Shown piece after piece: positions 4,997 through 59,194 of a stretch of 64,000 bases of DNA. The notes under the pieces are model-generated. The model saw only the letters and a program-made list of their open reading frames with translations, was not told the origin of the DNA and searched no databases. The stretch lies in contig JBDTVZ010000001.1 in the NCBI GenBank assembly GCA_040006935.1, positions 359,772 to 423,771 on the forward strand. Reading direction: 5' to 3'. A program made the position numbers and the translations under genes. The first letter of the stretch is position 1, and each line of letters starts with the position of its first letter. The DNA is from Candidatus Dojkabacteria bacterium. GTDB lineage: Bacteria; Patescibacteriota; Dojkabacteria; J137.

Positions 4997-5020
4997 GATT
5001 CATCTTTTAATTGAATCCTT

Positions 5021-5944
5021 TTAATTTTTAATTATTGAACAAATCCCATAACTTCCATCGTTATAAACAAGTTCGGCCTTTAGATCTAGTTTTGTAGCAA
5101 TTGCAGAAAATTCTTCGAAACCAGAAAGCTTTGAAAAATAGGGCAAATCAGTTTCCCCTGTTTTTAAACTTTTCCATTCCTGCTTTACAACTGGTGAAAT
5201 TCTAAAACAACAAAGTATTGTTCCCTTTTTATGGAGAATCTCTGAAAGTTTATTCATGAACTTTATCTCGGAATCTATAGGAACATAATTCCAAAACGCA
5301 TCTATGATGATAGTTTCGAAATAATCTTCTTTATACTTTGTTTTTAATATATCTGTAGTTTTAAAGCTAATTTTTTTATGATTCTCTAAAAATGGCAACT
5401 CGAGTTTGTTATTTACCTCTTTACTTAAATCGTGATAATGAACTTTCTTATACCTTTCGACTAACTGTGCAAGCAATTCAGGCGACGGAGTAGAGAGAAC
5501 TAAAGCTTTTCCACTTTTTGACCCTTTTGCATTCTGTAAAAAGAAATTTATTATTTCCTTCTTACCTTCAGAATAGGTCTTAATTTGAGCTCCAAAGGTC
5601 CTATTTCGAAAGATTTTCATCTTTTTGAGGATAAACTCGTAGTCAAAATTTTGATTGTCTCTGTAACGCTGTAATTCCAAACGCAAATTTTTCAATTTCC
5701 ACATAAACGCTTTACCTTTATTTTCAGTTGTTGAATCTATTGCAAAAGAATATGCTCTCTCAACTAAAGATCTCTCTAAATTCCTTGCAATTCGCATGTA
5801 TAATTTTAAATTAACAAGATCATTTAAATCTGCTGCGAGTTTGTATGCGAAAGCCTGAAATTCATGCCGAGCATGCTTTTTAGCTTCTTCAGGTTTAAGA
5901 AGATTATATTTTGAAAGAATATCTTTTGATGTAGTTATTGCCAT
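5021..5944 (-). CDS. hypothetical protein, possibly a class I methyltransferase-like fold
   Basis: Weak MTase-like segments (ALVLSTP..., ETIIIDAFWNYV...GTIL); low certainty. Confidence 0.45.
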   Translation of the reverse strand: MAITTSKDILSKYNLLKPEEAKKHARHEFQAFAYKLAADLNDLVNLKLYMRIARNLERSLVERAYSFAIDSTTENKGKAFMWKLKNLRLELQRYRDNQNFDYEFILKKMKIFRNRTFGAQIKTYSEGKKEIINFFLQNAKGSKSGKALVLSTPSPELLAQLVERYKKVHYHDLSKEVNNKLELPFLENHKKISFKTTDILKTKYKEDYFETIIIDAFWNYVPIDSEIKFMNKLSEILHKKGTILCCFRISPVVKQEWKSLKTGETDLPYFSKLSGFEEFSAIATKLDLKAELVYNDGSYGICSIIKN

Positions 5945-5996
5945 AGAATTTGGAGTTGAAATTGCAGATAATCATAGCAAAAAGAAATTATTATTT

Positions 5997-6058
5997 GTGT
6001 CATTTCGAGCGAACTAAGTGAGTCGAGACCCTTCGACTCCGCTCAGTGTGACACAATG
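5997..6058. repeat. MITE-like element family B (GTCATTTCGAGCGAAC...GAGTCGAGACCCTTCGACTC hairpin)
   Basis: 6001-6029 is nearly identical to the reverse complement of 39560-39589; internal perfect hairpin. Confidence 0.6.
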
Positions 6059-6099: not shown

Positions 6100-6275
6100 T
6101 TGAGATTCGCAGTGGACGCATTTACGATTGGGATATGTGAATCGTAGGGGACGCATTTAAGATTGAAATATGAGATTCGTAGGGGACGCATTTATGCGTC
6201 CCTCATTGAATGCCAGGATCAAAGAGCAATCCAACTTCATGCGGTAATGAACTGCCAGGAGAGAGGATGAGGTGG
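6100..6275 (+). repeat. composite repeat family A: tandem GAGATTC-GTAGGGGACGCA units (full REP-like palindrome 6179-6205) plus a conserved ~70-nt tail ending GATGAGGTGG
   Basis: Related copies at 16193-16333, 27961-28062 (inverted), 30141-30219 and a partial copy at 39637-39670. Confidence 0.75.
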
Positions 6276-6303
6276 TATTATAAAATATTATTAAATTAAT
6301 CAC

Positions 6304-6812: not shown

Positions 6813-8339
6813 TTACAACCTATTCAATAACCTCACCAACTCTTCCTCAACACCAGTAAGCTTATAGGAGCTGAAGAACACAATAATTAACTTTTCCTTT
6901 CTTTTTTTAATTTCTGATTTTAAGAAACTAACTAATTCTGTATTCTCAATATGTACAGTATTTATACTCATTTTCACAAGCCTTTCTACCATGTCATTTG
7001 TTGAAACTAAACCAGGAGTAACTTCAGATAAATCTGGAATAATTACCAAATCTGATAGAGCAAAGCTGTCCGAATAAGCTTTTCTGAAAATTTCTAAATC
7101 ATTCGGACGTGAACCTGCATTTGGTTCGAAGATAGATATGATTTTATGCTCAGGATATTTTTCGTGAATTGTCTCTAATGAATTTTGAGCTCTATCTGGT
7201 GCAATTCCAAAGTCATCAATTACAATTAGATCCTCAAATTTATAAATATGTTCCAGTCTTTTTTTAACTCCATGGAATTCTGAAATATATTTACTTAGGT
7301 CTTTTAATGTTTGCGTTCCTTTTTCAACTAAGCTTTGAGGTAATCTATGGGCAGGTAAACTACATATCAAAATTACAGCTGCAAGTATGTTTTCAAGGTT
7401 ATAAGAACCTAAAAGCTCAGTTTTAAATCTTAAAATCTCAGACCCCTTCTCATTGCAGATCAAGTTTTCATCACCTTCTGAAGCTACGCTCCAACCTTCA
7501 TTCTTTAATTCCTTCATTTCTTCATTAAACTTGTATCTAATTACCTTACATTTCGCTGATTTTAGAACTTTATCAATATTTTTATCTCCTGATTTTGCAA
7601 TAATTACTCCGTCTTCAGGAACTAATTCCACAGCTTTTCTAAATTCTTCTACATAAAGTTCTTCTGTTGGGAAAATATCAAAGTGCTCCCAAGTTATTTT
7701 TGTGATGATTAGGTATTTTGGTTTATATTCTAGAAATTTTGCTTTTCCTTCAATTTCCTTATCGGGATTGTGATATTCATCACCTTCAATTACAGACCAT
7801 TTAGAATCTGTGATTTTTAATGAATCCTCAATATCTACAACGTCAGCACCAATCATGTAACTTGGATTTAACCCTAGTTTTTGGGAAAGGAAGGTAATTA
7901 GAGCTGTTGTTGTTGTTTTTCCAGCAGTACCAATTACGACTATAGACTCATCTTTGATTAAATACTCTTTTAGAATTCTAGAATATGGACGGATATCCAA
8001 ACCTTTTTTCTTTGCATAAAGATATTCTTTATTTTTAGTAGGCAAATGACTGATGAATAAGATCAAGTCAGGATCATTTGGAATTTTGACATTTGATATT
8101 TGATATTTGTCATTATTTAACCAGAAACTCTTAGTCAAATGTTCGAAATCAAAACCCACAACTGTATTAATTTTATTTTCTACTAATAAATCTGAAGCAG
8201 GCGGAAGATATTGATTATCTGAACCTGTAACAAACCAGCCCATGTTTTGGAATTCTTTTGCTATATTCGCAGTTGTTTTACCGCAAACACCGATTATATG
8301 TAGCCATTTTTTTTGCATAAATTTATTATTTAAGTACAT
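6813..8339 (-). CDS. murC: Mur ligase family protein (MurC/Mpl-like)
   Basis: N-terminal HIIGVCGKTT...GSD domain, central P-loop VIGTAGKTTTT, and Mur ligase middle and C-terminal regions. Confidence 0.75.
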   Translation of the reverse strand: MYLNNKFMQKKWLHIIGVCGKTTANIAKEFQNMGWFVTGSDNQYLPPASDLLVENKINTVVGFDFEHLTKSFWLNNDKYQISNVKIPNDPDLILFISHLPTKNKEYLYAKKKGLDIRPYSRILKEYLIKDESIVVIGTAGKTTTTALITFLSQKLGLNPSYMIGADVVDIEDSLKITDSKWSVIEGDEYHNPDKEIEGKAKFLEYKPKYLIITKITWEHFDIFPTEELYVEEFRKAVELVPEDGVIIAKSGDKNIDKVLKSAKCKVIRYKFNEEMKELKNEGWSVASEGDENLICNEKGSEILRFKTELLGSYNLENILAAVILICSLPAHRLPQSLVEKGTQTLKDLSKYISEFHGVKKRLEHIYKFEDLIVIDDFGIAPDRAQNSLETIHEKYPEHKIISIFEPNAGSRPNDLEIFRKAYSDSFALSDLVIIPDLSEVTPGLVSTNDMVERLVKMSINTVHIENTELVSFLKSEIKKRKEKLIIVFFSSYKLTGVEEELVRLLNRL

Positions 8340-8521
8340 AATTTTAGAATATTAAATGAGATAAAGGAAGCTAAGAAATGTTAGCTAAATTAACCAAAAA
8401 ATATCTTTACAGTTAATAGTTTCGAGACCATACCCTATAGTTATTAAGTAAATGCCTTTTAATCCGTGGAAACTCATTCTGAATTCATTAGTGTTGTGGA
8501 ACAAAAAATATGAGTTGACAC

Positions 8522-8568
8522 CACAACAGGTTGTGTTTATTCTAGAGTTACAACACAATAAGTTGTGA
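8522..8568 (+). promoter_or_regulatory. two candidate NrdR boxes (CACAACAGGTTGTG and ACACAATAAGTTGTG), centres ~31.5 bp apart, upstream of nrdR
   Basis: Palindromic ACACAA/TTGTGT half-sites with about 3-turn spacing, as for known tandem NrdR operators. Confidence 0.5.
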
Positions 8569-8620
8569 TGTCGAGTTAAAAGTAAGGAAATGAAATTAAA
8601 AGCATTATTGGGTTTGATTT

Positions 8621-8676
8621 GAGATTCATCTTTTAACCTGCCTGCCGGTAGGCAGGTTCTTAATTCTTAATTGATT
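8621..8676. repeat. AT-rich intergenic motif GAGATTCATCTTTTAA...TTAATTCTTAATT with embedded palindrome AACCTGCCTGCCGGTAGGCAGGTT
   Basis: The same motif recurs at 3479-3510, 4362-4400 and 4995-5033; the palindrome is related to family C repeats. Confidence 0.55.
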
Positions 8677-8680
8677 TGTA

Positions 8681-9133
8681 GTGGTTTGTCCTTATTGTAA
8701 GAATGAAGATTTGAGAGTTGTAGATAAACGTGAGTGCGGAGAGTCTTCTATACGAAGAAGAAGAGAATGTGAGAAATGTGGCAAAAGATTTACAAGTTAC
8801 GAACGAATAGAAAAAGTGACTTTAAATGTTTTGAAGAGAGATGGAAGAATAGAAGAATTTGATAGAGAGAAATTAAAGCGAGGAGTTGTAAAAGCAGTAA
8901 AGAAAAGATATATCGCTGATGATGTTTTAGAAAGTATGATTACAGAGATTGAGCATAATTTGATGAATAGAGAAGAGCAAACAATCAAATCTGTAGAAGT
9001 AGGAGAGTTAGTTTTAAAGCATTTAACAAAAATTGATAAACTGGGAGCGTTATTATTTGCATCTGTTTATAAGGAATTTCAGAGTTTGGAGGACGTGCAA
9101 AAAGAAATGGAACGTATTTCAAAGAAAAAATAA
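8681..9133 (+). CDS. nrdR: transcriptional repressor NrdR
   Basis: N-terminal zinc ribbon CPYC...CEKC followed by an ATP-cone; sits immediately upstream of the RNR gene. Confidence 0.9.
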   Translation: MVCPYCKNEDLRVVDKRECGESSIRRRRECEKCGKRFTSYERIEKVTLNVLKRDGRIEEFDREKLKRGVVKAVKKRYIADDVLESMITEIEHNLMNREEQTIKSVEVGELVLKHLTKIDKLGALLFASVYKEFQSLEDVQKEMERISKKK

Positions 9134-9143
9134 GTTAAAAATC

Positions 9144-9159
9144 ACAACATTTATGTGTA
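9144..9159 (+). promoter_or_regulatory. candidate NrdR box CACAACATTTATGTGT upstream of nrdJ
   Basis: Imperfect palindrome with ACA-CA/TGTGT half-sites about 45 bp before the nrdJ start. Confidence 0.4.
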
Positions 9160-9200
9160 TGTACTTTTAGCCCCTTTTTACTATTTATTATCTTTATAAA

Positions 9201-11165
9201 ATGTCAGATAGTCCAGTTATTGATTCAAAAGCAGAGTTTCAAAAATTAGCAGAAGAAAGTAAAAAATCTTTCCAAAATCCATTAGCTGAATTTATTTACT
9301 ATCTTTCATATTCTAAATGGATTCCAGAAAAATCTAGAAGAGAAACATGGATCGAAACCATTGATCGATATATGGATTTCATGAATGAGAATATGGGTAC
9401 AAAGCTTACTGACATTGAATATTCGAAGGTAAGAGATTCACTTGTGAAAATGGAAACTGTTCCATCAATGAGATTGATGTGGAGTGCTGGACCTGCAGCT
9501 AGAAAATCTAATGTTACAGCTTACAATTGTTCCTATATTGCTATTGAAGAGTTAAAAGACTTTGGAGAAATAATGTATATCTCTATGTGTGGAACTGGAG
9601 TTGGATTTTCAGTTGAGAAGGCATCAATTGATAAACTTCCAACAGTTCAAATGCAAAATGGCGATATTTTACCTAAATATGTTGTTGAGGATAGTAAAGA
9701 AGGGTGGGCAAAAGCATTTGTACATGGATTAGACACTTGGTTTGCAGGAAAGAACGTAATTTTTGATTTTTCTGAATTAAGACCAAAGGGAGCACGATTA
9801 ATAACAATGGGAGGAAGGAGTTCTGGACCAGAACCATTAGCAGAGTTAATTAGTTTTACAAGAAAATTGGTTCTTAAAAACCAAGGTAAAAAATTAAGAC
9901 CTGTAGATGTTCACGATATTGCTTGTAAAATTGGAGAAATTGTAATTTCTGGAGGAGTTAGAAGAAGTGCAATGATTTCCCTATCTGACTTAGCAGATGA
10001 AGAGATGAGACATGCTAAAGATGGACAATTCTGGAAGGAAAACCCTCAAAGAATTATGTCTAATAATTCAGCTGTTTATAATGTAAAACCATCGGATGCA
10101 GAATTTTTGGATGAATGGACTAATTTGGTAAAAAGTGGATCTGGAGAGAGAGGAATTTTCAATAGAGCAGGATTAAGAGCTCAGCTTCCAGAAAGAAGAT
10201 GGAGAGTTTTTGAACCGTACTTTAAAAATTCTGGAACTAATCCTTGTGGAGAGATTGTTTTAAGATCAAAACAATTTTGTAATTTAACAAGTATTGTTGC
10301 AAGGGAAAACGACACTTTTGAAACATTAAAAGAAAAAGTAGAAATAGCTACTATATTAGGAACTTATCAGTCTACTTTAACTAACTTTGCTTTCTTATCC
10401 CCTGAGTGGAAGAAAAATTGTGATGAAGAAAGATTATTAGGAGTAAGTTTCACGGGTTTGTGGGACTGTCCAATACTTAGAGATGCAGAAGTATTAAGAA
10501 AACTAAGAGATTACTCAATTGAAGTTAATAAAAAGTATGCAGAACAGTTTGGTATAAATGCATCAACATGTATAACTTGTGTAAAACCATCTGGTAACAG
10601 TTCTCAATTAACTGACACTTCATCTGGATTACATACAAGACATGCTCCTTACTATATTAGAAGAGTAAGAATTGCTAATACAGATCCATTGTTCAAAATG
10701 ATGAAGACACAAGGGTTTCCATATAATCCTGAAGTAGGTCAGAAGGAAGAAACTGCAACAACATTTGTTCTCGAGTTCCCAATTAAGTCACCTGAAACAG
10801 CTGTATTTAAAAATAATATCAGTGCGATCGAACAATTAGAGATTTGGAAAATGTGTAAAGAGAACTTTACTGAGCATAACCCATCAGTTACAATTTCTGT
10901 AGGTTCTGGTGAATGGATTGGAGTAGCTGATTGGATTTATAAGAATTGGGAAATCACTGGAGGTCTTTCATTCCTTCCAAAGGAAGAAAATGACTTTGTT
11001 TATGAGCTCGCACCTTATGAAACAATAACAAAAGATAGATACGAGGAGTTAAAAGCTAAAATTCCAAATATTGATTTCTCTAAAATGATTAGTTATGAAT
11101 TAGAGGATTCAACTCAAGGAGCAAAAGAACTTGCTTGTATTGGGGATAAGTGTGAATTAGTTTAA
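9201..11165 (+). CDS. nrdJ: class II (adenosylcobalamin-dependent) ribonucleotide reductase
   Basis: Active-site motifs GTNPCGEI and FCNLTS; ~650 aa single chain adjacent to nrdR. Confidence 0.85.
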   Translation: MSDSPVIDSKAEFQKLAEESKKSFQNPLAEFIYYLSYSKWIPEKSRRETWIETIDRYMDFMNENMGTKLTDIEYSKVRDSLVKMETVPSMRLMWSAGPAARKSNVTAYNCSYIAIEELKDFGEIMYISMCGTGVGFSVEKASIDKLPTVQMQNGDILPKYVVEDSKEGWAKAFVHGLDTWFAGKNVIFDFSELRPKGARLITMGGRSSGPEPLAELISFTRKLVLKNQGKKLRPVDVHDIACKIGEIVISGGVRRSAMISLSDLADEEMRHAKDGQFWKENPQRIMSNNSAVYNVKPSDAEFLDEWTNLVKSGSGERGIFNRAGLRAQLPERRWRVFEPYFKNSGTNPCGEIVLRSKQFCNLTSIVARENDTFETLKEKVEIATILGTYQSTLTNFAFLSPEWKKNCDEERLLGVSFTGLWDCPILRDAEVLRKLRDYSIEVNKKYAEQFGINASTCITCVKPSGNSSQLTDTSSGLHTRHAPYYIRRVRIANTDPLFKMMKTQGFPYNPEVGQKEETATTFVLEFPIKSPETAVFKNNISAIEQLEIWKMCKENFTEHNPSVTISVGSGEWIGVADWIYKNWEITGGLSFLPKEENDFVYELAPYETITKDRYEELKAKIPNIDFSKMISYELEDSTQGAKELACIGDKCELV

Positions 11166-16051: not shown

Positions 16052-16075
16052 TTAAAAAAATTAAGAATTATAAAT

Positions 16076-16128
16076 TATAAACCTGCCTACCATGCATTCG
16101 ACAGATAAACCGGCAGGCAGGTTAGAGA
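16076..16128. repeat. family C palindromic element (CCTGCC...GGCAGGCAGG), inverted relative to the 18100-18150 copy
   Basis: Reverse complement matches 18105-18148; a mini-copy occurs at 8636-8662. Confidence 0.6.
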
Positions 16129-16192: not shown

Positions 16193-16333
16193 ATGAGATT
16201 CTGTAGGGGACGCATTTATGCGTCCCTCATAAAGTGCCAGGTCAAAGAGTAATCCCCGCCTGCTCCCGACTAGCAGGAGGGAGGGCGGGCACTTCATGCA
16301 GTATTAAACTGCCAGGAGAGTAGATGAGGTGGG
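16193..16333 (+). repeat. composite repeat family A copy with GTAGGGGACGCATTTATGCGTCCCTC palindrome and a 35-nt GC-rich insert
   Basis: Aligns to 6172-6275. Confidence 0.75.
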
Positions 16334-16391
16334 CTAAAGTCAACATAAATCGAAATAAGGCCGCACAAAGTCAATAGTGTATTTTTGGTGC

Positions 16392-16430
16392 GGTATGACC
16401 TCACCCTAACCCTCTCCTTAAAAGGAGAGG
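16392..16430. repeat. 39-bp element containing perfect hairpin CCTCTCC-TTAAAA-GGAGAGG
   Basis: An exact inverted copy lies at 35892-35929. Confidence 0.7.
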
Positions 16431-16481
16431 AAAAATATAAGCACTAAATGACAACTATCAATTTCTTGATATAATCAATTC

Positions 16482-18017: not shown

Positions 18018-18099
18018 GTGTCATTGCGAGGAGTCCGGAAGGACGACGTGGCAATCCCGTTGGGAAACCAGGTCATAGCTCGACTGAGTTTATCCTACC

Positions 18100-18150
18100 T
18101 GCCTGCGATCCTCTCCTGCCGGTTTATCTGCCGAAGGCATGGCAGGCAAG
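18100..18150. repeat. family C element preceded by a GTGTCATTGCGAGGA-type head (18011-18050)
   Basis: Matches the inverted copy at 16076-16128; the head is similar to 45894-45935. Confidence 0.55.
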
Positions 18151-18153
18151 TTT

Positions 18154-18774
18154 TTAATTTCTTCTAGTAGTAGTAACTGTTTTCGTAACTTTCCCCGCAC
18201 CATCTAAGATACTTGCTAAAAATCTTTCACTGAAAATATCCAGAAGTACAACTATTATTAAGGCAATAATTGCTGAGATATTTAACATTCCATTTAACAC
18301 TGGTATCCCTTGAATAATTCCTTGTGTCCAATCTGTTAAAGCAAAAATACTTAATATGAAAGAAGGCGCGTTTATTCGGTTATATAAATTAAATAAATCT
18401 AAAATTATTCTTATGAATAGTAAAAGTTCAATTACTTTAAAAATCCCATCAACAAAATTTTGAATTATATCTGTAATATTGTCATACAAAAATGCAGTTA
18501 TAATTTCGGAAATTGCAATTGCTAAAAGTACATATATTGCAATCGCAATCAACGCATCTACATTTATATTCGGCAAAGCAACGCCCGAAGGTACACTTAC
18601 AGCATTTGCAAAAGGATAGATGAAAAAATTACTTACACTATAAATTGCATCAATGAGAATATTTCCAGTCGATGCACCAACCATTTGAACTAATATTCTA
18701 ATTACTAGTATTGCTGCAATTAAACCTGCAACACCTAATATTAAAGCACGTACTCGATATCTAAGATCAGCCAT
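18154..18774 (-). CDS. YggT-family-like membrane protein (internal duplication)
   Basis: Two hydrophobic repeats resembling YggT/Ycf19 modules; low certainty. Confidence 0.45.
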   Translation of the reverse strand: MADLRYRVRALILGVAGLIAAILVIRILVQMVGASTGNILIDAIYSVSNFFIYPFANAVSVPSGVALPNINVDALIAIAIYVLLAIAISEIITAFLYDNITDIIQNFVDGIFKVIELLLFIRIILDLFNLYNRINAPSFILSIFALTDWTQGIIQGIPVLNGMLNISAIIALIIVVLLDIFSERFLASILDGAGKVTKTVTTTRRN

Positions 18775-27934: not shown

Positions 27935-27960
27935 CACCTTGGTGTCATTGCTTGACATTA

Positions 27961-28062
27961 CCACCTCATTTACTCTTGTAGCAGTTTGATACTGCATGAG
28001 TTAGATTACTCTTTGATCCTGGCATTTTACGAGGGACGCATAAATGCGTCCCCTACGAATCC
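27961..28062 (-). repeat. composite repeat family A copy in inverted orientation (ends ...GAGGGACGCATAAATGCGTCCCCTACGAATC)
   Basis: Reverse complement of 6172-6275. Confidence 0.75.
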
Positions 28063-28082
28063 CAGAATCTCGGAAAATGTCA

Positions 28083-28106
28083 CCTGCATGACTACGCACG
28101 CAGGCA
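28083..28106. repeat. hairpin CCTGCATGACTACGCACGCAGGCA
   Basis: Near-identical copy at 59036-59059. Confidence 0.6.
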
Positions 28107-28192
28107 CGGTGCCTGGACCCCACATGTCTCTTGTGAGGTAATGCTCCCCGTCAAGGGGGAGGTAGGAGGGGTTCTGCTGACTTGGACCCAGA

Positions 28193-28250
28193 GGTGCAAA
28201 TCTACACCTCCTCTCCCTTTGGGGTCGTCGTGTACCTTTGAACGGCCATA
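28193..28250. repeat. family D element (GCAAATCTACACCTCC...GTCGTCGTGTACCTTTG..GGCCAT)
   Basis: Similar copy at 41863-41930. Confidence 0.6.
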
Positions 28251-28300
28251 TTCATCTTCTATAATAAAATGTTAAAATAATTTCAATTACTATTAGATTT

Positions 28301-30103: not shown

Positions 30104-30118
30104 TTGATTATGTAGTAG

Positions 30119-30138
30119 GGTCCAGCCATGGCTGGACC
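30119..30138. repeat. REP-like palindrome type 1 (GGTCCAGCCATGGCTGGACC) with GTAG head, directly 3' of the ligase stop
   Basis: Perfect 20-bp GC-rich palindrome; related copies at 39047-39067, 50601-50620, 59149-59168. Confidence 0.8.
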
Positions 30139-30140
30139 TG

Positions 30141-30219
30141 AGATTTGTAGGGGATGCCACGATCAAAGAGTAATCCAACTCATGCAGTATTAAACTGCCA
30201 AGAGAGTAGATGCGGTGGT
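30141..30219 (+). repeat. composite repeat family A copy (degenerate palindrome half plus conserved tail)
   Basis: Aligns to 6172-6275. Confidence 0.7.
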
Positions 30220-30281
30220 AATGTTTAAATAATTCATGGTTCGATAAACTCACCATGGCATAAAGTGTCCTCGCATTGTCA

Positions 30282-35533: not shown

Positions 35534-35891
35534 ATTTAAGAATTTCCAATTAATTAATTATTTGAAAATTTGTTTATTGTTCTTCTTCATTCTATAGCTT
35601 TATAACAATAATTGACAAATTAAATTAGAAAAAATATAATACAATCAATAAAAGCAATGATTGGGAAGAAAGATAAAGGTTTGCGAAGAGAGGTGATGGT
35701 TGGTGCAAATCACTCAAATTATTATCCCTGCAGCCCATGAGCTGACTACGAAGAGTAGATCCGGAAGCGAAACCGTAAAACACAAAAAGAGAAGTAATTA
35801 AGGTGGTACCACGGTTCGACAAGCTCACCGCAAGCTAAGAAGATCGTCCTTTACACAATAGTATGTGTAGTGGACGATTTTTTTTATTCCC

Positions 35892-35929
35892 TTTCCTTTT
35901 AAGGAGAGGGTTAGGGTGAGGTCATACCG
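35892..35929. repeat. inverted copy of the 16392-16430 hairpin element
   Basis: Exact reverse complement. Confidence 0.7.
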
Positions 35930-35978
35930 CCGCGAAACCAAGTTAAAGTTAGGCAGTTCTATTTATTAAACTAAATTT

Positions 35979-36578
35979 ATGACTGAATATCATGTTCTTG
36001 TAGAAGGATATGCCCATGAAGGAGAAAATGGAAATTTTCTTGCAAGCCCAACGAGTGTGCTCTTACTTTCCAATGGGAAGAAAATTTTAATGGATCCCGG
36101 GGCGGATAGACAGAAACTTTTAGAATCATTAAATAAATTAAACTTGAAAACAGAAGATATTGATTTAATATTTTTAACTCATTATCATCCAGATCACTTT
36201 TTAAATATTCGATTATTTCCAAATATAGAAATTGTTGATGCAGAGACTATTTGGAGAGATAACGCAGAAGAAATTGCTTCGAATTGCAAAATAGAAGGTA
36301 CAAATATTGAAGTAATTAAAACTCCTGGGCATTCTCCTGAACATTCATCATTAATTATTAATGCCAACGAAGGGAAATTATGTTTTTCCCAAGATGTATT
36401 TTGGTGGCAAGATGGAGAACAGAAAACTGATGACTACGAAGCAATGGTAAATTATGCTGATCCATTTGCATCAGATATGAATGCTTTGAAAGAATCTAGA
36501 AAGAAACTCTTGGAAATAGCCGATTGGATTATTCCAGGCCACGGTAAAAAATTTAAAAATAATTTTAAAAATTCTTAA
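35979..36578 (+). CDS. MBL-fold metallo-hydrolase
   Basis: HxHxDH motif LTHYHPDHF. Confidence 0.8.
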   Translation: MTEYHVLVEGYAHEGENGNFLASPTSVLLLSNGKKILMDPGADRQKLLESLNKLNLKTEDIDLIFLTHYHPDHFLNIRLFPNIEIVDAETIWRDNAEEIASNCKIEGTNIEVIKTPGHSPEHSSLIINANEGKLCFSQDVFWWQDGEQKTDDYEAMVNYADPFASDMNALKESRKKLLEIADWIIPGHGKKFKNNFKNS

Positions 36579-36580
36579 CT

Positions 36581-37066
36581 ATGAATACTCGAAAAGCTGG
36601 AGAAAAAGATCTCTTTAAATTAGCTGAGTTCTTAAGAGGACTAGATGAATATAATTATAAGGTTCTTGGCCTAAGTTTAATGTTTAGTATGTACAAATTG
36701 GATTTTAATGATAAACAATCATACGAATCTATAATGGGAAACTATATGAAGGATGAAGATAATCTATTTTATCTTATTGAAAATGAAGGAAACCCTATTG
36801 GTTTTGCTATAGTGATTATGGAGCCTAATAAATTTGGAAATAATAAACTCTATGCAACATTGGATACTATATTTATAGATGAAGATTTTAGAAGAAGAGG
36901 TGCGGGGAAAATGATCCTGGATTTTATTATTACAGAGTTAAAAAATATGAACGCCGTTGGGCTAACAAGTTATATAGCTACAAATAATGCCATTTCTGTA
37001 GGATTCCATGAAAAAAATGGTTTTAAAGAAGTAACGCAATGGAGAGAATTATATAAAGATTTATAA
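36581..37066 (+). CDS. GNAT family N-acetyltransferase
   Basis: Acetyl-CoA binding motif FIDEDFRRRGAGKMIL. Confidence 0.8.
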   Translation: MNTRKAGEKDLFKLAEFLRGLDEYNYKVLGLSLMFSMYKLDFNDKQSYESIMGNYMKDEDNLFYLIENEGNPIGFAIVIMEPNKFGNNKLYATLDTIFIDEDFRRRGAGKMILDFIITELKNMNAVGLTSYIATNNAISVGFHEKNGFKEVTQWRELYKDL

Positions 37067-37082
37067 ATATTAGAAATTTATT

Positions 37083-39038
37083 ATGAAATCATCAGAAGAA
37101 ATCCGACAATCCTATTTAGACTTTTGGAGCGAAAGCCCAAGAAATTCTAAAGTTATTCCTAATTCCTCACTTGTTCCTTCAAATGTACAAGGTGGAAATA
37201 CATTATTATTTGTAAATTCAGGAATGTTCCCAATAATTCCTTATTTAACAGGACAGCCTCACCCTTTAGGTACACGTGTTCACAATGTTCAAAGGTGTAT
37301 TCGAACTAAAGATATTGAAGATGTAGGAGATAACAGGCATTTAGTTCTATTTGAAATGATAGGTAATTGGTCCTTTGGAGATTTTACTAAAGAGCAACAG
37401 ATCGAATGGTGCTTAGAATTGTACGTAAAAAGATTTGGACTTGATCCTAAAAGATTATATATAACTGTATGGGCAGGAGATGAAGTAGTTCCAAGAGATG
37501 ATGAGGCTATTAGATTATGGCAGAGAGAATTTAAGAAATACGGAATTAATGCAGAATTTAGTGAAGATATTGGAAACATACCAAGTAATCTTAAAGAAGG
37601 AGAAGAATGGAAATATAGAATATTCCCTTATGGCCGAGAAGCAAATTGGTGGGAAGTATCACATAGTGCAGGAGAACCAGGTGGACCAAGTTCCGAAATA
37701 TTTTACGACCTTGGGGTAAAAGAAAGGGAACAAGATCAATATCATATAAATGACGACTCCGGAAGATTTATAGAAGTTGGGAATAATGTATTCATGGAAT
37801 ATAAACTTGATGAGAACTTAAAGTATCAACCACTAGAAAAAAAGAATATAGATTTTGGAGGAGGGTTCGACAGAATTATGTTTGCTGTACAAAACCAAGT
37901 TGATGTTTTTGCTACAGATTTATTTCAGCCTATGATTGAGAAAATCGAGAATTTGTCTAATAAACAATATAAAGGCGGTGTTGAGTTAAACGAAGACACA
38001 AAAGCATTTAGAATCGTTGCAGAACATATTAGATCTTCAGTATTTATTCTTGGTGACGGAGTTATACCTTCAGGAAAAGATCAAGGATATATTTTGAGAA
38101 GATTAATTAGAAGAATGGTTAGATATGCAAAAAAACTAGGTATTGAGAATAACTTTTCAAAAGACATTGCACTGATTGTAATAAATAAGATGCAAGAAGC
38201 TTACCCACACTTAGCAGAGAATAAAGATCTAATACTTTCAGAAATAGAGAAGGAAGAGAAAACGTTTAGAATTACTCTAGATAGAGGGCTACGTATTCTA
38301 AAGACGCATAATTATGCGTCTCAAGATGCGTCTCAAAATGAATCTCAAGAAACAAAAATCAATGGAGCAGAAGCTTTCAATTTATACGAAACCTACGGGT
38401 TTCCATTAGAATTAACCCTTGATGAATTAAAAATTGACGAAAAAACTGCAGAAAAAATTACAGAAGAATTTAAATCTGAAGAGAAAAAACATAGAGAAAG
38501 TTCTAGAGCTGGGGCTGAGCAAAAATTCAAAGGTGGATTAGCAGATCAATCTATAGAGACTACAAAACTACACACTGCCCATCATTTACTTCTTGCTGCC
38601 TTACAGAGAATTGTTGATCCTAAAATAAGACAAAAAGGTAGTAACATTACAGCCGAAAGATTAAGAATAGATTTTAATTTAGATAGAAAATTAACAGAAG
38701 ATGAAATTAAACAAGCAGAAGATTTAGTAAACGAACAAATTACAAAAGAATTAGAAGTGAGAAGAGTAGAAATGCCAAAAACTCAAGCAGAACAAATAGG
38801 AGCTCAAATGGAATTTGGTCAAAATTATCCAGATACTGTTTCTGTATATTTTATGGCACCTAAAAGCGTGATCGAAGGGGAAGAATGGCAATCTCCAGAA
38901 ATATTTTCTAAAGAATTTTGTGGAGGACCACACGTTTCAAATACAAAAGAACTAGGAGAAAATGGAAAGAAATTTAAAATTCTAAAAGAAGAAAGTAGTG
39001 GTTCAGGAGTTAGAAGAATAAAAGCTGCGTTAATTTAA
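37083..39038 (+). CDS. alaS: alanyl-tRNA synthetase lacking the C-terminal C-Ala domain
   Basis: Class II core (FVNSGM, RCIRTKDIEDVG, FFEMIGNWSFGDF), editing-domain HxxxH (HTAHHLL) and CGGPHV motifs; 651 aa. Confidence 0.85.
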   Translation: MKSSEEIRQSYLDFWSESPRNSKVIPNSSLVPSNVQGGNTLLFVNSGMFPIIPYLTGQPHPLGTRVHNVQRCIRTKDIEDVGDNRHLVLFEMIGNWSFGDFTKEQQIEWCLELYVKRFGLDPKRLYITVWAGDEVVPRDDEAIRLWQREFKKYGINAEFSEDIGNIPSNLKEGEEWKYRIFPYGREANWWEVSHSAGEPGGPSSEIFYDLGVKEREQDQYHINDDSGRFIEVGNNVFMEYKLDENLKYQPLEKKNIDFGGGFDRIMFAVQNQVDVFATDLFQPMIEKIENLSNKQYKGGVELNEDTKAFRIVAEHIRSSVFILGDGVIPSGKDQGYILRRLIRRMVRYAKKLGIENNFSKDIALIVINKMQEAYPHLAENKDLILSEIEKEEKTFRITLDRGLRILKTHNYASQDASQNESQETKINGAEAFNLYETYGFPLELTLDELKIDEKTAEKITEEFKSEEKKHRESSRAGAEQKFKGGLADQSIETTKLHTAHHLLLAALQRIVDPKIRQKGSNITAERLRIDFNLDRKLTEDEIKQAEDLVNEQITKELEVRRVEMPKTQAEQIGAQMEFGQNYPDTVSVYFMAPKSVIEGEEWQSPEIFSKEFCGGPHVSNTKELGENGKKFKILKEESSGSGVRRIKAALI

Positions 39039-39046
39039 ATTATGTA

Positions 39047-39067
39047 GGGTCCGCCCATGGGCGGACC
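39047..39067. repeat. REP-like palindrome type 1 (GGGTCCGCCCATGGGCGGACC) with TATGTAG head, directly 3' of alaS
   Basis: Perfect GC-rich palindrome 8 nt after the stop codon. Confidence 0.8.
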
Positions 39068-39076
39068 TCTTAAATT

Positions 39077-39370
39077 ATGGAAATTAAAATTCTCTCAGCA
39101 ATTTACGGATTCATGATTGGTTCAATTCTTGGAAGTTTTTTTGGTGTAATAACAGACCGACTTCCAAGAGGAGAATCTATAATCTCTCCACCTTCACATT
39201 GTGACAATTGTAAAACACCTTTGAAGCTGTATGACAATATTCCAATCTTTGGATATTTAAATCTAAAAGGAAAATGTAGAAATTGTGGAAATAAAATTCC
39301 TTTAAGATTTTTTCTACTCGAGTTAACATTAGGAATAGTTTTTGCTGTAATGGCTTTTATTATTTTTTAA
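39077..39370 (+). CDS. prepilin peptidase N-terminal zinc-binding domain only (no A24 peptidase domain), possibly a truncated remnant
   Basis: TM helix plus CDNC...CRNC tetra-Cys motif typical of the PilD N-domain; ORF ends at 97 aa, followed by repeat elements. Confidence 0.5.
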   Translation: MEIKILSAIYGFMIGSILGSFFGVITDRLPRGESIISPPSHCDNCKTPLKLYDNIPIFGYLNLKGKCRNCGNKIPLRFFLLELTLGIVFAVMAFIIF

Positions 39371-39467
39371 AAGAAGTTGGTATTCAAAAGAGACAAATGG
39401 ATTCACTGAGAAAATGATTGAGTCTGGAAAAGTGAATGAAGAATTCAGTAACATGTGATTGAATTGT

Positions 39468-39592
39468 GTCATTTCGACTGAGGAGTTCCGAGAATCGGAA
39501 TGACGAATGGAGAAATCTGTAACCACCTATTTATATGATCAGATGGAAGTTAAAGATTTCTCGACTCACTACGTTCGCTCGAAATGACATAA
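39468..39592. repeat. MITE-like element family B with terminal inverted repeats TGTCATTTCGA.../...TCGAAATGACA
   Basis: TIRs at both ends; 39560-39589 is the reverse complement of 6001-6029. Confidence 0.65.
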
Positions 39593-39765
39593 ATATGGAT
39601 CATCTTGTGCCAAGTATAAATAAGGTCCAACCCCACTTAATTTAAACTGCCAGAACACAGTATGAGGTGGTAAGGTCAATGAAAATGTAAAGACCTTAAC
39701 TTACTAAGATTTATAGCTGTAAAGTCAAGGGTTAATTCTTGCTATTCTCTATTAATTTATAATTC

Positions 39766-45989: not shown

Positions 45990-46061
45990 GCTAGGGTAGC
46001 TCAGCTTGTAGAGTACTCGCCTGAAGAGCGAGGTGTCGACAGTCCCAGCCGCCCTCTGGCA
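45990..46061 (+). pseudogene. degenerate tRNA-Phe(GAA) copy with disrupted T-arm
   Basis: Same acceptor, D and anticodon arms as the tRNA-Phe at 47364-47439, but the T-stem has 2 mismatches and a 6-nt loop. Confidence 0.6.
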
Positions 46062-47363: not shown

Positions 47364-47439
47364 TGGTGCCAGAGGGCGGACTCGGACCGCCGACACCTCG
47401 CTCTTCAGGCGAGTGCTCTACCAGCTGAGCTACCCTAGC
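47364..47439 (-). tRNA. tRNA-Phe (anticodon GAA), CCA encoded
   Basis: GCTAGGG acceptor, D-arm GCTC-AGCTGGTA-GAGC, anticodon loop CUGAAGA, T-arm GGCGG-TCCGAGT-CCGCC, 3' CCA present. Confidence 0.85.
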
Positions 47440-48256: not shown

Positions 48257-49537
48257 ATGTCTTCATTAGTAATACAAGGTGGTCATGCTTTAAACGGAAC
48301 CGTTGTTCCAATGCCTAACAAAAATTCGATACTTAAGCTTATTCCTGCAGCTGTTTTAACAGATGCTCCAGTTACATTTCACAATGTTCCAAAAAGCTCT
48401 GCTGTACGTATTCTATTACAGATTTTTAGACAACTTGGTGGGAAAGTAGCGTATCTAAAAGGTGATTCAATAAGATTGGATGGTGCAGGAATTAATACTT
48501 CAGCAATTAACGAAGAACTAGCTGGGAAAGAAAGAGCTTCTTTTTTATTTTTAGGACCTTTGGTTTCTAGATTCGGAAGTGCTTCCATTAGAGATGGTGG
48601 AGGATGCAAATTAGGGAATAGACCATTAGATACGATGTTTCAAGGTTTGGAAGGACTTGGAGTTCAAGTTGATAAAGGTGATGGATACAAGATTAAAGCT
48701 AAAGAATTAAAAGGTGCTCATATTTGGTTAATTGAAGCTTCAGTTACAGGAACAGAAAATTTAGTATTAGCCGCAGTTAAAGCAAAAGGAATCACAACAA
48801 TTTACAATGCAGCTTGTGAGCCGCACACTCAAGATTTATGTAATTTCCTAGTTTCTGTTGGAGCAAAAATTGAAGGAATTGGAACAAATAAATTAGTTAT
48901 TGAAGGAGTTGAGAACTTAAGTGGAGGAGAGTGGACAGTAATTTCTGACCATGTAGATATCGGTGGATTGATTGTTGCTGCATTAGTTACGGACGGTGAA
49001 TTAACAATTAAGAATGCAATCCCAGAGCACATGACTCAAATTATTAATTACTTTAGAAAGCTAAATGCCAAGATTACTATAAAAGGGAAGGATATTCATA
49101 TTCCAAAAGATCAGGATTTAAAAGCATTGCCAAATATTAAAGGTGATATGGATAAGATTAACGACCTGCCATGGCCAGGATTTCCTGTAGACTTGATTCC
49201 ACAGGCATTAATTCTTGCTTTAAAAGCTAAAGGAAATATTAGAGTTTATTCTAATTTATACGAAGTTCAATTAATTGAATTGTTTGCAGAATTGTTTAAG
49301 ATGCAAGCAAAAATGACAATGGCGAATCCTAATATGATTTTGACCCATGGAGCAACTGAATTTGTTGGAACAAAAGTAAATGCTTCTACAATTTTACAAT
49401 GTACACATGCATTAGTACTTGCAGGACTGGCAGCAAGAGGAAAAACAACAGTAGAAAATGCAGATATTATTTATAGAAGATTCCCTGAAATTGTTCAAAC
49501 TTTAAATGCACTTGGTGCGAAAATTGAGAAGGCTTAA
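48257..49537 (+). CDS. murA: UDP-N-acetylglucosamine 1-carboxyvinyltransferase
   Basis: EPT-family N-terminus LVIQGGHALNGTVVPMPNKNSILK and catalytic-loop region GGCKLGNRPLD. Confidence 0.9.
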   Translation: MSSLVIQGGHALNGTVVPMPNKNSILKLIPAAVLTDAPVTFHNVPKSSAVRILLQIFRQLGGKVAYLKGDSIRLDGAGINTSAINEELAGKERASFLFLGPLVSRFGSASIRDGGGCKLGNRPLDTMFQGLEGLGVQVDKGDGYKIKAKELKGAHIWLIEASVTGTENLVLAAVKAKGITTIYNAACEPHTQDLCNFLVSVGAKIEGIGTNKLVIEGVENLSGGEWTVISDHVDIGGLIVAALVTDGELTIKNAIPEHMTQIINYFRKLNAKITIKGKDIHIPKDQDLKALPNIKGDMDKINDLPWPGFPVDLIPQALILALKAKGNIRVYSNLYEVQLIELFAELFKMQAKMTMANPNMILTHGATEFVGTKVNASTILQCTHALVLAGLAARGKTTVENADIIYRRFPEIVQTLNALGAKIEKA

Positions 49538-49538
49538 T

Positions 49539-50297
49539 ATGAGCACACTTACTGTTAAGATTGATGATAAGGATTTGAAATTTACCACATACTCTTTTGG
49601 GGATATACTTGCAGGTTTTAGTCTAGGAAAGAATGTGAACTACCACCCTTTATCTGATATAAATTTACAACTAACTTCAAAAGTTCTAAATAAACTAGAT
49701 TTATCAGGATCTTTCTTAAAAATAAAAACAGAGCATAAAGATAAAATATTAATTAACTCTGACTCTGAGGAAGCAGATGCAATTATCTCAACATCAGGAA
49801 AACCAATAATTCTTTCTCCAGCCGATTGTATAGGACTAATCCTTATTGATACAAAATCAAATTCTTATGGTCTTTGCCATGTTGGAAGAGCAGGTGTTGG
49901 ATACAATATTGTTGAAAAATTTATTAATAAATTCCTTGAAATAATAGATTCAACTACATACGAAAATAATCAATTTCAATTTATAATTTCTCCTAATATC
50001 GACCACGAGAATTACCCTCATAACGATGATGCTTTTATCTATACTGATAGTAAGCCTAATTGGTGGTTTAACAACCAAGAGTTGCTAAATAAAAAGGATG
50101 GTACATTTTTTCCTAATCTTGAAGGTGCTGTTATTAAACAAATCAAAGAGAGTAAATTAAAAGACGACTCTTATGAAATTATCTCATCAGGTTTAAGTAC
50201 GTTTAAGGAAGATATGCATTCTAATGCCAGAGATACGCATGAAAGTATTAAGGAGAAAAGAAGAAATTTAGTATTTGTTGGTCACTTAGATAGATAA
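49539..50297 (+). CDS. PgeF/YfiH (DUF152) family protein
   Basis: SPADCIGLILID....GLCHVGRAGVG matches the ADCxP...HAGWRG core; start set at MSTLTV, 1 nt after the murA stop. Confidence 0.6.
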   Translation: MSTLTVKIDDKDLKFTTYSFGDILAGFSLGKNVNYHPLSDINLQLTSKVLNKLDLSGSFLKIKTEHKDKILINSDSEEADAIISTSGKPIILSPADCIGLILIDTKSNSYGLCHVGRAGVGYNIVEKFINKFLEIIDSTTYENNQFQFIISPNIDHENYPHNDDAFIYTDSKPNWWFNNQELLNKKDGTFFPNLEGAVIKQIKESKLKDDSYEIISSGLSTFKEDMHSNARDTHESIKEKRRNLVFVGHLDR

Positions 50298-50600
50298 TAT
50301 CCTAATCTGGTATAATTCGAAATAATTAAATTTATTTCATGATTCGCACCAGAAAAATTCTCCGACATAAATATTTGGATTATTCAAACAATCGAAAATA
50401 TTTCATTACAATTTGTACAAAATACAGAATTAATCATTTTGGTGAAATTAAAAATAACAAAATGTTTTATTCTGATATTGGATTGATTGCCAGAGAATAT
50501 TTGGAAACAATTCCCAGGCATTTTATATTTTGTGAAATTGATTCGTTTGTTGTTATGCCGAATCATGTACATATGGTTGTGGTGTTGAATGAATATGTAG

Positions 50601-50620
50601 GGGTCGCCCATGGGCGACCC
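50601..50620. repeat. REP-like palindrome type 1 (GGGTCGCCCATGGGCGACCC) inside the tnpA coding sequence, preceded by TATGTAGG
   Basis: Perfect 20-bp palindrome, ~75% GC in a ~33% GC gene. Confidence 0.8.
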
Positions 50621-50645
50621 AATGATTTTGGTATGACGAATAATC

Positions 50646-50670
50646 GGGACGCCGATCGGCGTCCCCTACA
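50646..50670. repeat. REP-like palindrome type 2 (GGGACGCCGATCGGCGTCCC-CTACA) inside tnpA, inverted relative to the type 1 copy
   Basis: Same stem as the GTAGGGGACGCA...TGCGTCCC elements at 6179, 16206, 28034. Confidence 0.8.
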
Positions 50671-50902
50671 ATTACAAAATCCGATGAATGTATCAATACC
50701 AAAAATAATCAATCATTACAAAGGGTCTGTAACGCGTATTGTCCAAAATGAATTCAATAATTTTGATTTCCAATGGCAACGTTCATACCACGACCATATA
50801 ATCCGCAACGACCACGAATTAAACCGAATTCAAATTTACATAAACCACAACATATTAAATTGGAACAAAGATATTAATAATAAATAATGATAAAATCTTT
50901 CT

Positions 50903-51928
50903 ATGCAAAAATTCCAAAACCACAACATTAAAGAATTCAATACATTCCACATTGCAGTAAATGCAAGGGAATTTATCATTATCGAAAATTCCTCTGAGCT
51001 CATAGAACTTTATAAAAAAAACCTCTTCAAAAATAAATTCTTTATTTTAGGGTCAGGAAGCAATTTGCTTTTCACAAAGGATTTTGATGGTGCAATTATC
51101 CAAATAGATAATCGCGGAATCAAAGTAGTTAACGAAACACCTGAGCATATATTTGTAGAATCAGAAGCTGGGGAAGATTGGGATGAGTTTGTAGGTAAAA
51201 CAATGGAAATGAATGCATATGGATTAGAAAACCTATCTTTAATTCCCGGATCTGTAGGAGCATCCGCGGTTCAAAATATTGGAGCTTACGGAGTTGAGGC
51301 TAAAGATTTTATAGAGTCTGTTGAGTTTTTTCATTTAGAAGATGGGAAGTTCCATAAAGCTGTTAACTCCGAGCTAGGATTCAAATATAGAGATAGTATT
51401 TTTAAACACGATCTTAAAGATAAAGCCATTGTTACAAAAATTACTTTTAAATTAAATAAGAAACCGGCATTAAAACTTGAGTATGCCGATGTATTGAAAG
51501 AGATAGAGAGTAGAGGACTAGATAAAAACAAACTTCATCCGAAAGAATTAAGAAATCTGATTATCGATATTAGAAATAATAAATTAGAAAACCCAAAACT
51601 GATCGGCAACTCCGGTAGTTTTTTCAAAAATCCAATAATATCTAACGATAAAATTGATGAATTAACAAAAGATTACCCAAGTTTAAAATCAAATTATGTT
51701 ACCGATTCTGAATCTAAAATTTCTGCAGGGTGGCTGATAGAGCAAGCTGGGTGGAAAGGATGGATATCAATCGATAAACAGTATGGAGTATCACCTAAGC
51801 ACGCCTTAGTTATAGTAAACTATTCCAATGCAAAAGGAGTGGACATACTAACTCTTGCTAAACACATTAAAAGCTCTGTTAAAGAAAATTTCGGAGTAGA
51901 GTTAGAGGAAGAAGTAATTATAATATAA
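50903..51928 (+). CDS. murB: UDP-N-acetylenolpyruvoylglucosamine reductase
   Basis: FAD-binding FILGSGSNLLF and C-terminal MurB domain (AGWLIEQAGWKG, KHALVIVN). Confidence 0.85.
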   Translation: MQKFQNHNIKEFNTFHIAVNAREFIIIENSSELIELYKKNLFKNKFFILGSGSNLLFTKDFDGAIIQIDNRGIKVVNETPEHIFVESEAGEDWDEFVGKTMEMNAYGLENLSLIPGSVGASAVQNIGAYGVEAKDFIESVEFFHLEDGKFHKAVNSELGFKYRDSIFKHDLKDKAIVTKITFKLNKKPALKLEYADVLKEIESRGLDKNKLHPKELRNLIIDIRNNKLENPKLIGNSGSFFKNPIISNDKIDELTKDYPSLKSNYVTDSESKISAGWLIEQAGWKGWISIDKQYGVSPKHALVIVNYSNAKGVDILTLAKHIKSSVKENFGVELEEEVIII

Positions 51929-55134: not shown

Positions 55135-55268
55135 GTAGCTAACTTAGCAACTCGAGTGATATAATCAATCGTAAATCTTTGTGAGCATAGCGAACATTAG
55201 ATTTATATTGTCCCGAGCGAAGCCGAGGGACCTAAACTTAAATACATAAAACAAATTGGAGGAAATCT

Positions 55269-59001: not shown

Positions 59002-59025
59002 AGACCCGAGAGGGTCTTTTTTTTT
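59002..59025 (+). terminator. rho-independent terminator after rplT
   Basis: AGACCCGAGAGGGTCT hairpin followed by T9. Confidence 0.85.
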
Positions 59026-59035
59026 GTCATAGCGA

Positions 59036-59059
59036 CCTGCCTGACTGCGCACGCAGGCA
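59036..59059. repeat. hairpin CCTGCCTGACTGCGCACGCAGGCA
   Basis: Copy of 28083-28106. Confidence 0.6.
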
Positions 59060-59148
59060 TGGGGAGTCCCAGAGGGATGGCATACGGCCCCGAAACCACA
59101 CTTTTGTTTGGGCCGTTCTTATTAGCTTTGCTTATAAAAATGAAACAA

Positions 59149-59168
59149 GGGTCGCCAATTGACGACCC
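59149..59168. repeat. REP-like palindrome type 1 variant (GGGTCGCCAATTGACGACCC) just 3' of the PBP gene
   Basis: GC-rich hairpin with one mismatch, located after the end of a minus-strand gene. Confidence 0.65.
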
Positions 59169-59194
59169 TTCTTAACTGAATATCTTTTAATTTT

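Follow-up and report, generated by a model that had tools for sequence, protein, structure and literature searches.

GTAG-headed hairpins in a Dojkabacteria genome and a candidate cognate RAYT of the subclass 2.4 kind

The spacer behind the DNA ligase gene of this Dojkabacteria bacterium contains a GC-rich palindrome headed by GTAG, and similar palindromes recur along the window, that is, the whole 64-kb stretch (33% GC) of a 516,739-bp contig from a metagenome-assembled genome that was analysed here and to which the copy counts given for the host refer. The question raised by this locus is whether these palindromes are REPs accompanied by a cognate transposase (RAYT, also called TnpA_REP) or hairpins of another kind, such as transcription terminators. 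To our knowledge, work on REP-RAYT systems has been confined almost entirely to Proteobacteria, with surveys extending to Cyanobacteria and Bacteroidetes, and we found no paper in the literature describing such a system in the CPR.

Two classes of GTAG-headed hairpins

The GC-rich palindromes reported in a first-pass annotation of the window were all present as quoted, and their exceptional character in a sequence of about 33% GC was borne out. Scanning for perfect stems of at least 7 pairs and at least 60% GC yielded 11 hairpins in the window as against 0.5 ± 0.6 in shuffled sequences. Seven hairpins had GT[AG]G directly 5' of the stem, whereas 200 first-order Markov simulations gave a mean of 0.295 and a maximum of 2.

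These seven GTAG hairpins, five of them extragenic, belong to two classes. Type 1, with the consensus GG(G)TC..CCATGG..GACC, was found on the plus strand at 30115-30138, at 39044-39067 and, inside the RAYT gene, at 50597-50620. The TATGTAG that had been described in front of most of the palindromes was recovered as (T/A)TATGTAG before the three type-1 copies. Type 2, with the consensus GTAG-GGGACGC-N6-GCGTCCC, was found at 6179-6202 and 16203-16226 on the plus strand, at 28033-28056 on the minus strand (GTAG head at 28056) and, inside the RAYT gene, at 50646-50669, also on the minus strand (GTAG head at 50669). The second stem type that the first-pass annotation had recognised at four sites corresponds to these type-2 REPs, all headed by GTAG; the extragenic ones, however, are not bare hairpins but parts of a composite repeat of about 110 nt. 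The RAYT gene is the only intragenic site of GTAG hairpins in the window.

The GTAG tetranucleotide lies at offset 0 from the stem, on one side only, and is invariant in the seven copies. When these were aligned, 100% of the stem cells were paired and both sides had changed at 5 of the 8 pairs, and neither the paired fraction nor the covariation score observed was reached by any of 500 shuffles. Sliding the structures by 1-3 columns reduced pairing to 36-48%. The conserved feature of the window hairpins is therefore the pairing and not the sequence. No Rfam family was found for the REPs, nor for the module of about 75 nt that accompanies the extragenic type-2 copies, at gathering or permissive thresholds.

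The transposase gene and the REPs inside it

The intact ORF at 50339..50887 (plus strand) encodes a protein of 182 aa, identical to NCBI MEP7103444.1, that sequence comparison and a structural model identify as a Y1/HUH transposase of the REP-associated type. Pfam Y1_Tnp matched it with 43 bits (E 5.5e-11; cutoff 23). The HuH motif is NHVH (aa 75-78), WQ is found at 146-147, and Tyr167 lies within YINHNILNW. In a 23-sequence alignment with 22 homologues it keeps every invariant residue, including His76, His78, Trp146, Tyr167 and Asn171. More than 3,700 homologues align with it end to end, and in many cases the source names the homologue 'REP element-mobilizing transposase RayT'; the best non-self match in the protein search was 47% identical. 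The AlphaFold (AF2) model (pLDDT 83) was matched by Foldseek, with probability 1.00, to the IS608, ISDra2 and IS200 TnpA proteins and to E. coli TnpA_REP (PDB 4ER8). The E value for IS608 TnpA was 5e-7, and the highest query TM-score corresponded to 4ER8 (TMq 0.54). The NCBIfam equivalog model NF047646 (REP_Tyr_transpos) gave 48.7 bits (E 6.7e-13), under its curated cutoff of 80, so the protein is related to this E. coli-type model without being its equivalog.

A tblastn search found a single RAYT copy in the window, and no other transposases were detected among the 18 ORFs scanned against Pfam. The gene is separated by spacers of 41 and 15 nt from its neighbours, a Cu-oxidase_4-family gene and murB, and neither spacer contains hairpins or REPs. 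When the REP segment is left out, the gene has 28.7% GC and is thus compositionally at home in the host genome. An IS200/IS605 insertion sequence was also considered for this locus and rejected, since flanking hairpins are lacking and there is one copy in the window.

The copy that had been noticed inside tnpA is a complete type-1 REP at 50597..50620 (plus strand; GTAG followed by GGGTCGCCCATGGGCGACCC), read in frame as VGVAHGRP (aa 87-94), and this is an already published trait of TnpA_REP subclass 2.4 (PMC6006769). It is accompanied at 50646..50669 by a type-2 REP on the minus strand (GTAG followed by GGGACGCCGATCGGCGTCCC), whose plus-strand in-frame reading is RDADRRPL (aa 103-110). Two REPs, one per genomic class, are in this way included in the coding of aa 87-110. 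The pair is an inverted doublet, and 50596-50670 folds as one ssDNA hairpin (-22 kcal/mol, z -4.6). Both REPs fall after the HuH strand and before the next conserved helix, in the hypervariable linker that leads to the Tyr motif. About 30 extra residues separate the two aligned blocks here when the protein is compared with Sulfolobus IS200 transposases, and the length of the linker varies widely in the alignment of homologues. In the AF2 model aa 84-118 showed no secondary structure and a pLDDT mostly below 50, so the REP-bearing linker is predicted to be disordered. When cognate copies were sought within 1 kb on either side of the RAYT, as expected for a REPtron, the two in-gene REPs were found and none in the flanking spacers of 41 and 15 nt. 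A REPIN, that is, an inverted doublet repeated as a unit, was discarded, the in-gene pair being the only inverted one and the extragenic copies being singletons or composites.

The same arrangement was found in other genomes. The five homologues retrieved by protein sequence (L121, L122, L124, L128 and L129) all have in-gene GTAG hairpins in the same linker; L121 and L122 are annotated as Patescibacteria, and L121 and L124 contain related hairpin copies also outside the RAYT gene. In-gene hairpins were confirmed on DNA in these five and in L090, L091 and L108. In addition, the pattern GTAGGGGWCGC-N6-GCGWCCC was scanned in representative genomes, one per species, and matched at least 120 stretches. 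Among the matches listed there are Nitrospinota, Poribacteria, Gemmiger/Subdoligranulum, Omnitrophota, Zixibacteria, Peribacteria and Patescibacteria, and several genomes with many copies of the hairpin. In the stretches listed, four of four RAYT genes have the hairpin in-gene or at no more than 100 nt. L003 shows the classic REPtron layout, its RAYT being flanked on either side by REP doublets; L090 and L108 carry one REP in the RAYT gene and another just downstream, and in L091 one and the same REP occurs within the gene and just upstream. The in-gene position is typical of subclass 2.4 and not an oddity of this genome.

Taken with the hairpins, these data make it very likely that the window contains GTAG-type REPs of two related classes together with a cognate RAYT/TnpA_REP of the subclass 2.4 kind, which is RAYT group 4. 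The assignment to this subclass, made on sequence grounds, would follow from the motifs, the length, the in-gene REPs and the homologues named 'RayT' in Bacteroidota and Patescibacteria. The suggestion of the first-pass annotation, that GTAG-headed REPs and a cognate RAYT coexist in a small low-GC genome, finds independent support in the Y1/HUH ORF with RAYT motifs, in the presence of one in-gene REP of each class, in co-location in other genomes and in the joint absence of both components from two relatives. A system of this kind is already known, and it is apparently undescribed in the Dojkabacteria lineage.

Catalysis by the RAYT, mobility of the REPs and a role in RNA may be proposed by analogy. 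In single-stranded DNA, such as the lagging-strand template of a replication fork, a REP would fold into a GC-rich hairpin of 8-10 bp. A RAYT dimer would bind this hairpin and read the unpaired 5' GTAG at its foot, as the solved TnpA_REP-REP complex of E. coli and IS608 suggest (PMC3479197, PMC3333891). It could then cut nearby by means of the HuH-bound metal and Tyr167, and might rejoin the strand elsewhere, a cycle by which REPs would be spread or rearranged. The gene itself would tolerate REPs where its product has a disordered linker at the surface, between HuH and Tyr, and this tolerance could explain why it carries one in-frame REP per class. Transcribed at the mRNA 3' ends of the ligase and alaS genes, REPs would form stable RNA hairpins that could shield these ends or attenuate read-through.

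In L124 the 3' part of a RAYT gene, with both in-gene REPs, recurs as a fragment some 700 nt upstream of the complete gene (5020-5220 versus 5732-5932), adjoining an IS110-family transposase gene. The upstream REP doublet was examined as a possible mobilisation out of the gene. This was rejected because the identity continues into the coding sequence, and it is a partial gene duplication.

Extragenic copies and alternative explanations

The three intact extragenic type-2 REPs are all the 5' part of a composite repeat of about 110 nt, in which a conserved flank (TGAGATTC) is followed by the REP and then by the module of about 75 nt. The composite at 6171..6284 (plus strand) includes the REP 6179-6202 and a module at about 6205-6288. 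That at 16195..16340 (plus strand) includes the REP 16203-16226 and a module at about 16229-16350, which is broken by a GC-rich hairpin insert of about 35 nt (about 16256-16290). The one at 27952..28064 is in inverse orientation (minus strand), with the REP at 28033-28056 and the module at about 27948-28030. At 30140..30232 (plus strand) the hairpin is deleted and the module (30154-30232) is intact, the REP head TGAGATTTGTAGGGGA being directly followed by TGCCACG, and a diverged module with no REP was found at 39603..39684 (plus strand; nhmmer E 3.6e-15). Type-2 copies occupy divergent or unidirectional spacers. The module, with five copies in the window, is lineage-specific and non-coding. 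It was absent from the loci of the relatives compared; a first metagenome scan gave 0 matches and a second one 12, in which the pattern alone lay inside unrelated gut-bacterial sequence. RNAalifold found no covariation in the five module copies.

As all the intact extragenic type-2 REPs lie inside a composite, the multiplied unit may be the composite rather than the REP. This is the starting point of the alternative in which the system is a relic: the REPs would be fossil, the RAYT would no longer move them or would have been domesticated, and the type-2 copies would have multiplied as passengers of the composite, by another transposase or by recombination. The existence of the module without a REP fits this explanation, as do the composite copies, which are about 83-95% identical to each other but not identical, and the modest repeat numbers that characterise RAYT group 4 (PMC5581495). 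It fits as well that in-gene and extragenic REPs are not the same: those of type 2 differ in six central bases and those of type 1 in two stem pairs, and hence no very recent copying between them is visible. However, the RAYT ORF is intact and keeps all the catalytic and invariant residues, and the window offers neither a second Y1 copy nor, in the ORFs scanned, another transposase that could have moved the composites. Moreover, three copies with diverging flanks share one and the same 24-nt type-2 core and, together with the compensatory changes in the stems, this points to continuing constraint or conversion acting on the hairpin. We consider a relic unlikely, and the reading with a RAYT cognate to the REPs is preferred.

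Upstream of the first composite there is a tandem array (6101..6194, plus strand; 35-nt period, 2.7 copies) whose units consist of a 5' flank and the left half of the type-2 REP; the hairpin is complete only in the last unit. Similarly, the Patescibacteria RAYT of L121 contains in-gene, at about 10289-10350, three repeats of the right REP half (GGGCGTCTCTACCAA). Such tandem repeats of half REPs may have been left behind at REP hairpins by cleavage and rejoining or by slippage.

The palindromes had been described as placed immediately 3' of stop codons. This holds for two extragenic type-1 copies and does not for the type-2 or the in-gene ones. The type-1 REP 30115..30138 (plus strand) begins 12 nt past the stop codon of the ATP-dependent DNA ligase gene, in a convergent spacer, and adjoins a truncated type-2 head at 30147. 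The type-1 REP 39044..39067 (plus strand) begins 6 nt past that of alaS, in the 38-nt spacer between alaS and the prepilin-peptidase gene. These two positions would suit a transcription terminator or an mRNA 3'-end stabiliser unrelated to any transposase; GC-rich hairpins are otherwise rare in the host genome, and REPs of E. coli stabilise mRNA 3' ends. Nevertheless, a T run is absent from the 3' flanks of the seven GTAG hairpins, the REP at 30115 being for this reason not terminator-like, and none of the three REPs included in a 27-40 kb scan (28056, 30115 and 39044) was called terminator-like. Besides, two REPs belong to a coding sequence and two others precede genes, in divergent spacers, an invariant one-sided GTAG has no role in termination, and the same hairpin class adjoins RAYT genes in unrelated phyla, while the Dojkabacteria relatives use different hairpins plus T runs at the equivalent sites. 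Terminators or stabilisers of this sort are very improbable as the origin of the family.

Double-stranded palindromic sites for a dimeric DNA-binding protein, of binding or restriction type, are brought to mind by several copies that are perfect palindromes with no unpaired loop and by many centres that are 6-bp restriction-like palindromes (CCATGG, CGATCG or AGATCT), but this explanation has almost no chance of being right, since stem sequence varies freely while pairing is kept, as fits a hairpin and not a sequence-specific duplex, GTAG is conserved on one side only in 7/7 window copies, and the extragenic type-2 centre (ATTTAT) is non-palindromic.

A further palindrome, annotated at 59149 as a member of the family, had to be removed from it. 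This hairpin (59147..59170, minus strand), behind the PBP gene (59195-62230, minus strand), has no GTAG, contains one stem mismatch, ends in a T-rich tail (GTTTCATTTT) and was called terminator-like; it is probably the intrinsic terminator of the PBP gene. At the equivalent place the relative L130 has a different hairpin plus a T run (18335-18354).

The type-1 REP behind alaS is bounded by a perfect 10-nt direct repeat, TTAAATTATG, at 39035-39044 and 39070-39079. The left copy contains the stop codon of alaS and the right one the codon with which the next gene starts; it looks as though an insertion of 35 nt had duplicated a 3-nt gene junction. A general target duplication at REP insertions was nevertheless rejected: flanking repeats of at least 7 nt accompany 3.2% of the 473 GTAG hairpins of all the loci compared, barely above the null of 2.0%, and the repeat at 39044 is for this reason an exception. 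An empty site for this REP was not found in the relatives, where the spacers are different and longer or another gene lies downstream.

These data allow a more speculative scenario, which we regard as rather doubtful. The in-gene REPs would be a heritable 'seed', the RAYT having entered this Dojkabacteria lineage, or persisted in it alone, with one template per class inside its own ORF, from which both extragenic classes were founded. One class would then have fused to the module of about 75 nt to give a new, non-REPIN mobile unit, with at least one insertion (39044) accompanied by a 10-bp target duplication, a route unexpected for Y1 transposition.

In the same region, a T-box leader-like RNA (35648-35854, plus strand) scored 86 bits (E 3e-17), just under the Rfam gathering threshold of 93. 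It lies upstream of a string of MBL-fold, GNAT and alaS genes (35979-39038), and a dispersed repeat (35880-35937) separates it from the first of them.

Comparison with known systems and with relatives

The closest known system is subclass 2.4 of TnpA_REP (Quentin et al., 2018, BMC Genomics 19:475, PMC6006769), which corresponds to group 4 of the RAYTs in Bertels et al. (2017). The subclass is characterised by NH[IFV]H, WQ and YIxNNP motifs, a length of about 194 aa and canonical long or 'double-foot' GTAG REPs, the canonical long ones with three G-C pairs at the stem base; the in-frame insertion of REPs into the gene, at a variable and peripheral region between HuH and Tyr, is described as a 'unique feature' of the subclass (PMC6006769). 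The window system shares with it a Y1 protein in the range of 180-195 aa with NH[IFV]H and WQ, in-frame REPs in the HuH-Tyr insertion, long GTAG REPs with a GGG/CCC stem base, and modest repeat numbers, in a group scattered across phyla. By contrast, the host is here a member of the Dojkabacteria (CPR/Patescibacteria) with a genome of about 0.5 Mb and 33% GC; to judge from its text, that study did not include CPR genomes (PMC6006769). In addition, no REPs flank the window RAYT ORF, and its Tyr motif is YINHNI instead of YIxNNP, with HNI in place of NNP. The closest homologues also deviate at this motif (YILTNS in P0002 and YIKKNI in P0011). The window REPs are single-foot, whereas those of the Patescibacteria homologues L121 and L122 are double-foot.

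The REP/BIME and TnpA_REP system of E. coli (Ton-Hoang, 2012; Messing, 2012, PDB 4ER8) resembles that of the window in its GC-rich hairpins with 5' GTAG at their foot, in having two related REP classes and in its single HUH-Y1 protein. E. coli REPs reportedly have bulged stems, number hundreds, form BIMEs and flank the gene without entering it. The E. coli protein belongs, however, to subclass 2.2 and is 17% identical to the window RAYT, and its REPs flank its gene whereas those of the window sit inside. Pseudomonas REPIN-RAYT systems (Bertels & Rainey, 2011) likewise tie hairpin repeats to a single-copy RAYT (one copy in the window), and their inverted doublet has a counterpart in the in-gene pair. 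They are said to reach hundreds of copies and to belong to group 3. Extragenic copies in the window are singletons or composite parts and not inverted REP doublets.

Rickettsia palindromic elements (RPEs) and intragenic REPs offer another parallel, as in-frame palindromic repeats of a reduced genome that are tolerated in surface loops. RPEs lack a dedicated transposase, are either longer or of the CGTC type and occur in many genes (Ogata, 2000; Di Nocera, 2013, PMC3733652), whereas intragenic REPs are confined in the window to the RAYT gene. The composite repeat recalls the composite TIRs of P. putida and P. fluorescens, formed by degenerate GTAG units and unrelated stem-loops (Di Nocera, 2013, PMC3733652), since in both cases the unit that multiplied joins a GTAG REP to an unrelated structured segment. 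The sequences are different, however, and the window composites, which number about 5 in 64 kb, are not found at the flanks of the RAYT and contain a lineage-specific non-REP module.

The two closest genomes compared, whose ligases are 78% and 71% identical and whose MurB proteins are 64% and 70% identical to those of the host, are syntenic with the window over approximately 24-62 kb. No GTAG-headed hairpin and no RAYT-like sequence were found in 73 kb of these two Dojkabacteria relatives. At the site of the RAYT gene, murA abuts murB in one of them and a different gene, with an HSDR_N_2 domain, lies between both in the other; at the positions of the window REPs they have either nothing or palindromic repeats of other, unrelated kinds. 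The transposase thus goes together with the repeats as a lineage-specific pair, as both are absent from the relatives and the best non-self RAYT is only 47% identical.

The case does not change the current picture of how a REP-RAYT system is built. Its interest lies in an intact system in an ultra-small, AT-rich CPR genome in which every intergenic base is at a premium. Because close relatives have neither the RAYT nor the repeats, they provide a clean natural contrast for the cost or the contribution of REPs in minimal genomes. The very small REP population, with two classes, is also a test bed for RAYT specificity.

The murA-murB junction is variable among Dojkabacteria, extending over 48257-51928 in the window, with the Cu-oxidase_4-family gene and the RAYT, and over 7867-11020 and 8721-11020 in the relatives L130 and L131. 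Another variable locus is the spacer upstream of the ligase gene. In the relative L125 (5575-5965) it contains a 99-aa GIY-YIG ORF between GTCATCCCGC..GCGGGAT palindromes, and the matching window spacer (27935-28300) has a type-2 composite and a GC-rich tract of 160 nt (28078-28237). Small mobile elements of different kinds seem to share this spacer as a hot spot.

The intergenic regions of the window also contain GC-rich palindromic repeats with no GTAG, which form at least three more families. They include a 'TGTCAT'-headed family, CCTGCC/GGCAGG repeats bracketing uvrC and a CCCTCTCC hairpin family. A first set of these further repeats is found at 5992-6056, 18018-18060, 39467-39595, 55208-55239 and 59024-59060, a second at 8636-8657, 16072-16117 and 18115-18160, and a third is the pair 16383-16440 / 35880-35937. 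Most intergenic spacers of the host genome are mosaics of palindromic modules. Finally, 45990-46061 (plus strand) and 47364-47439 (minus strand) form a pair in which a second tRNA-like sequence, with 36 bits in Rfam and no ARAGORN call, was observed. It is 92% complementary over 60 nt to tRNA-Phe(GAA) and may be a diverged or decaying inverted duplicate.
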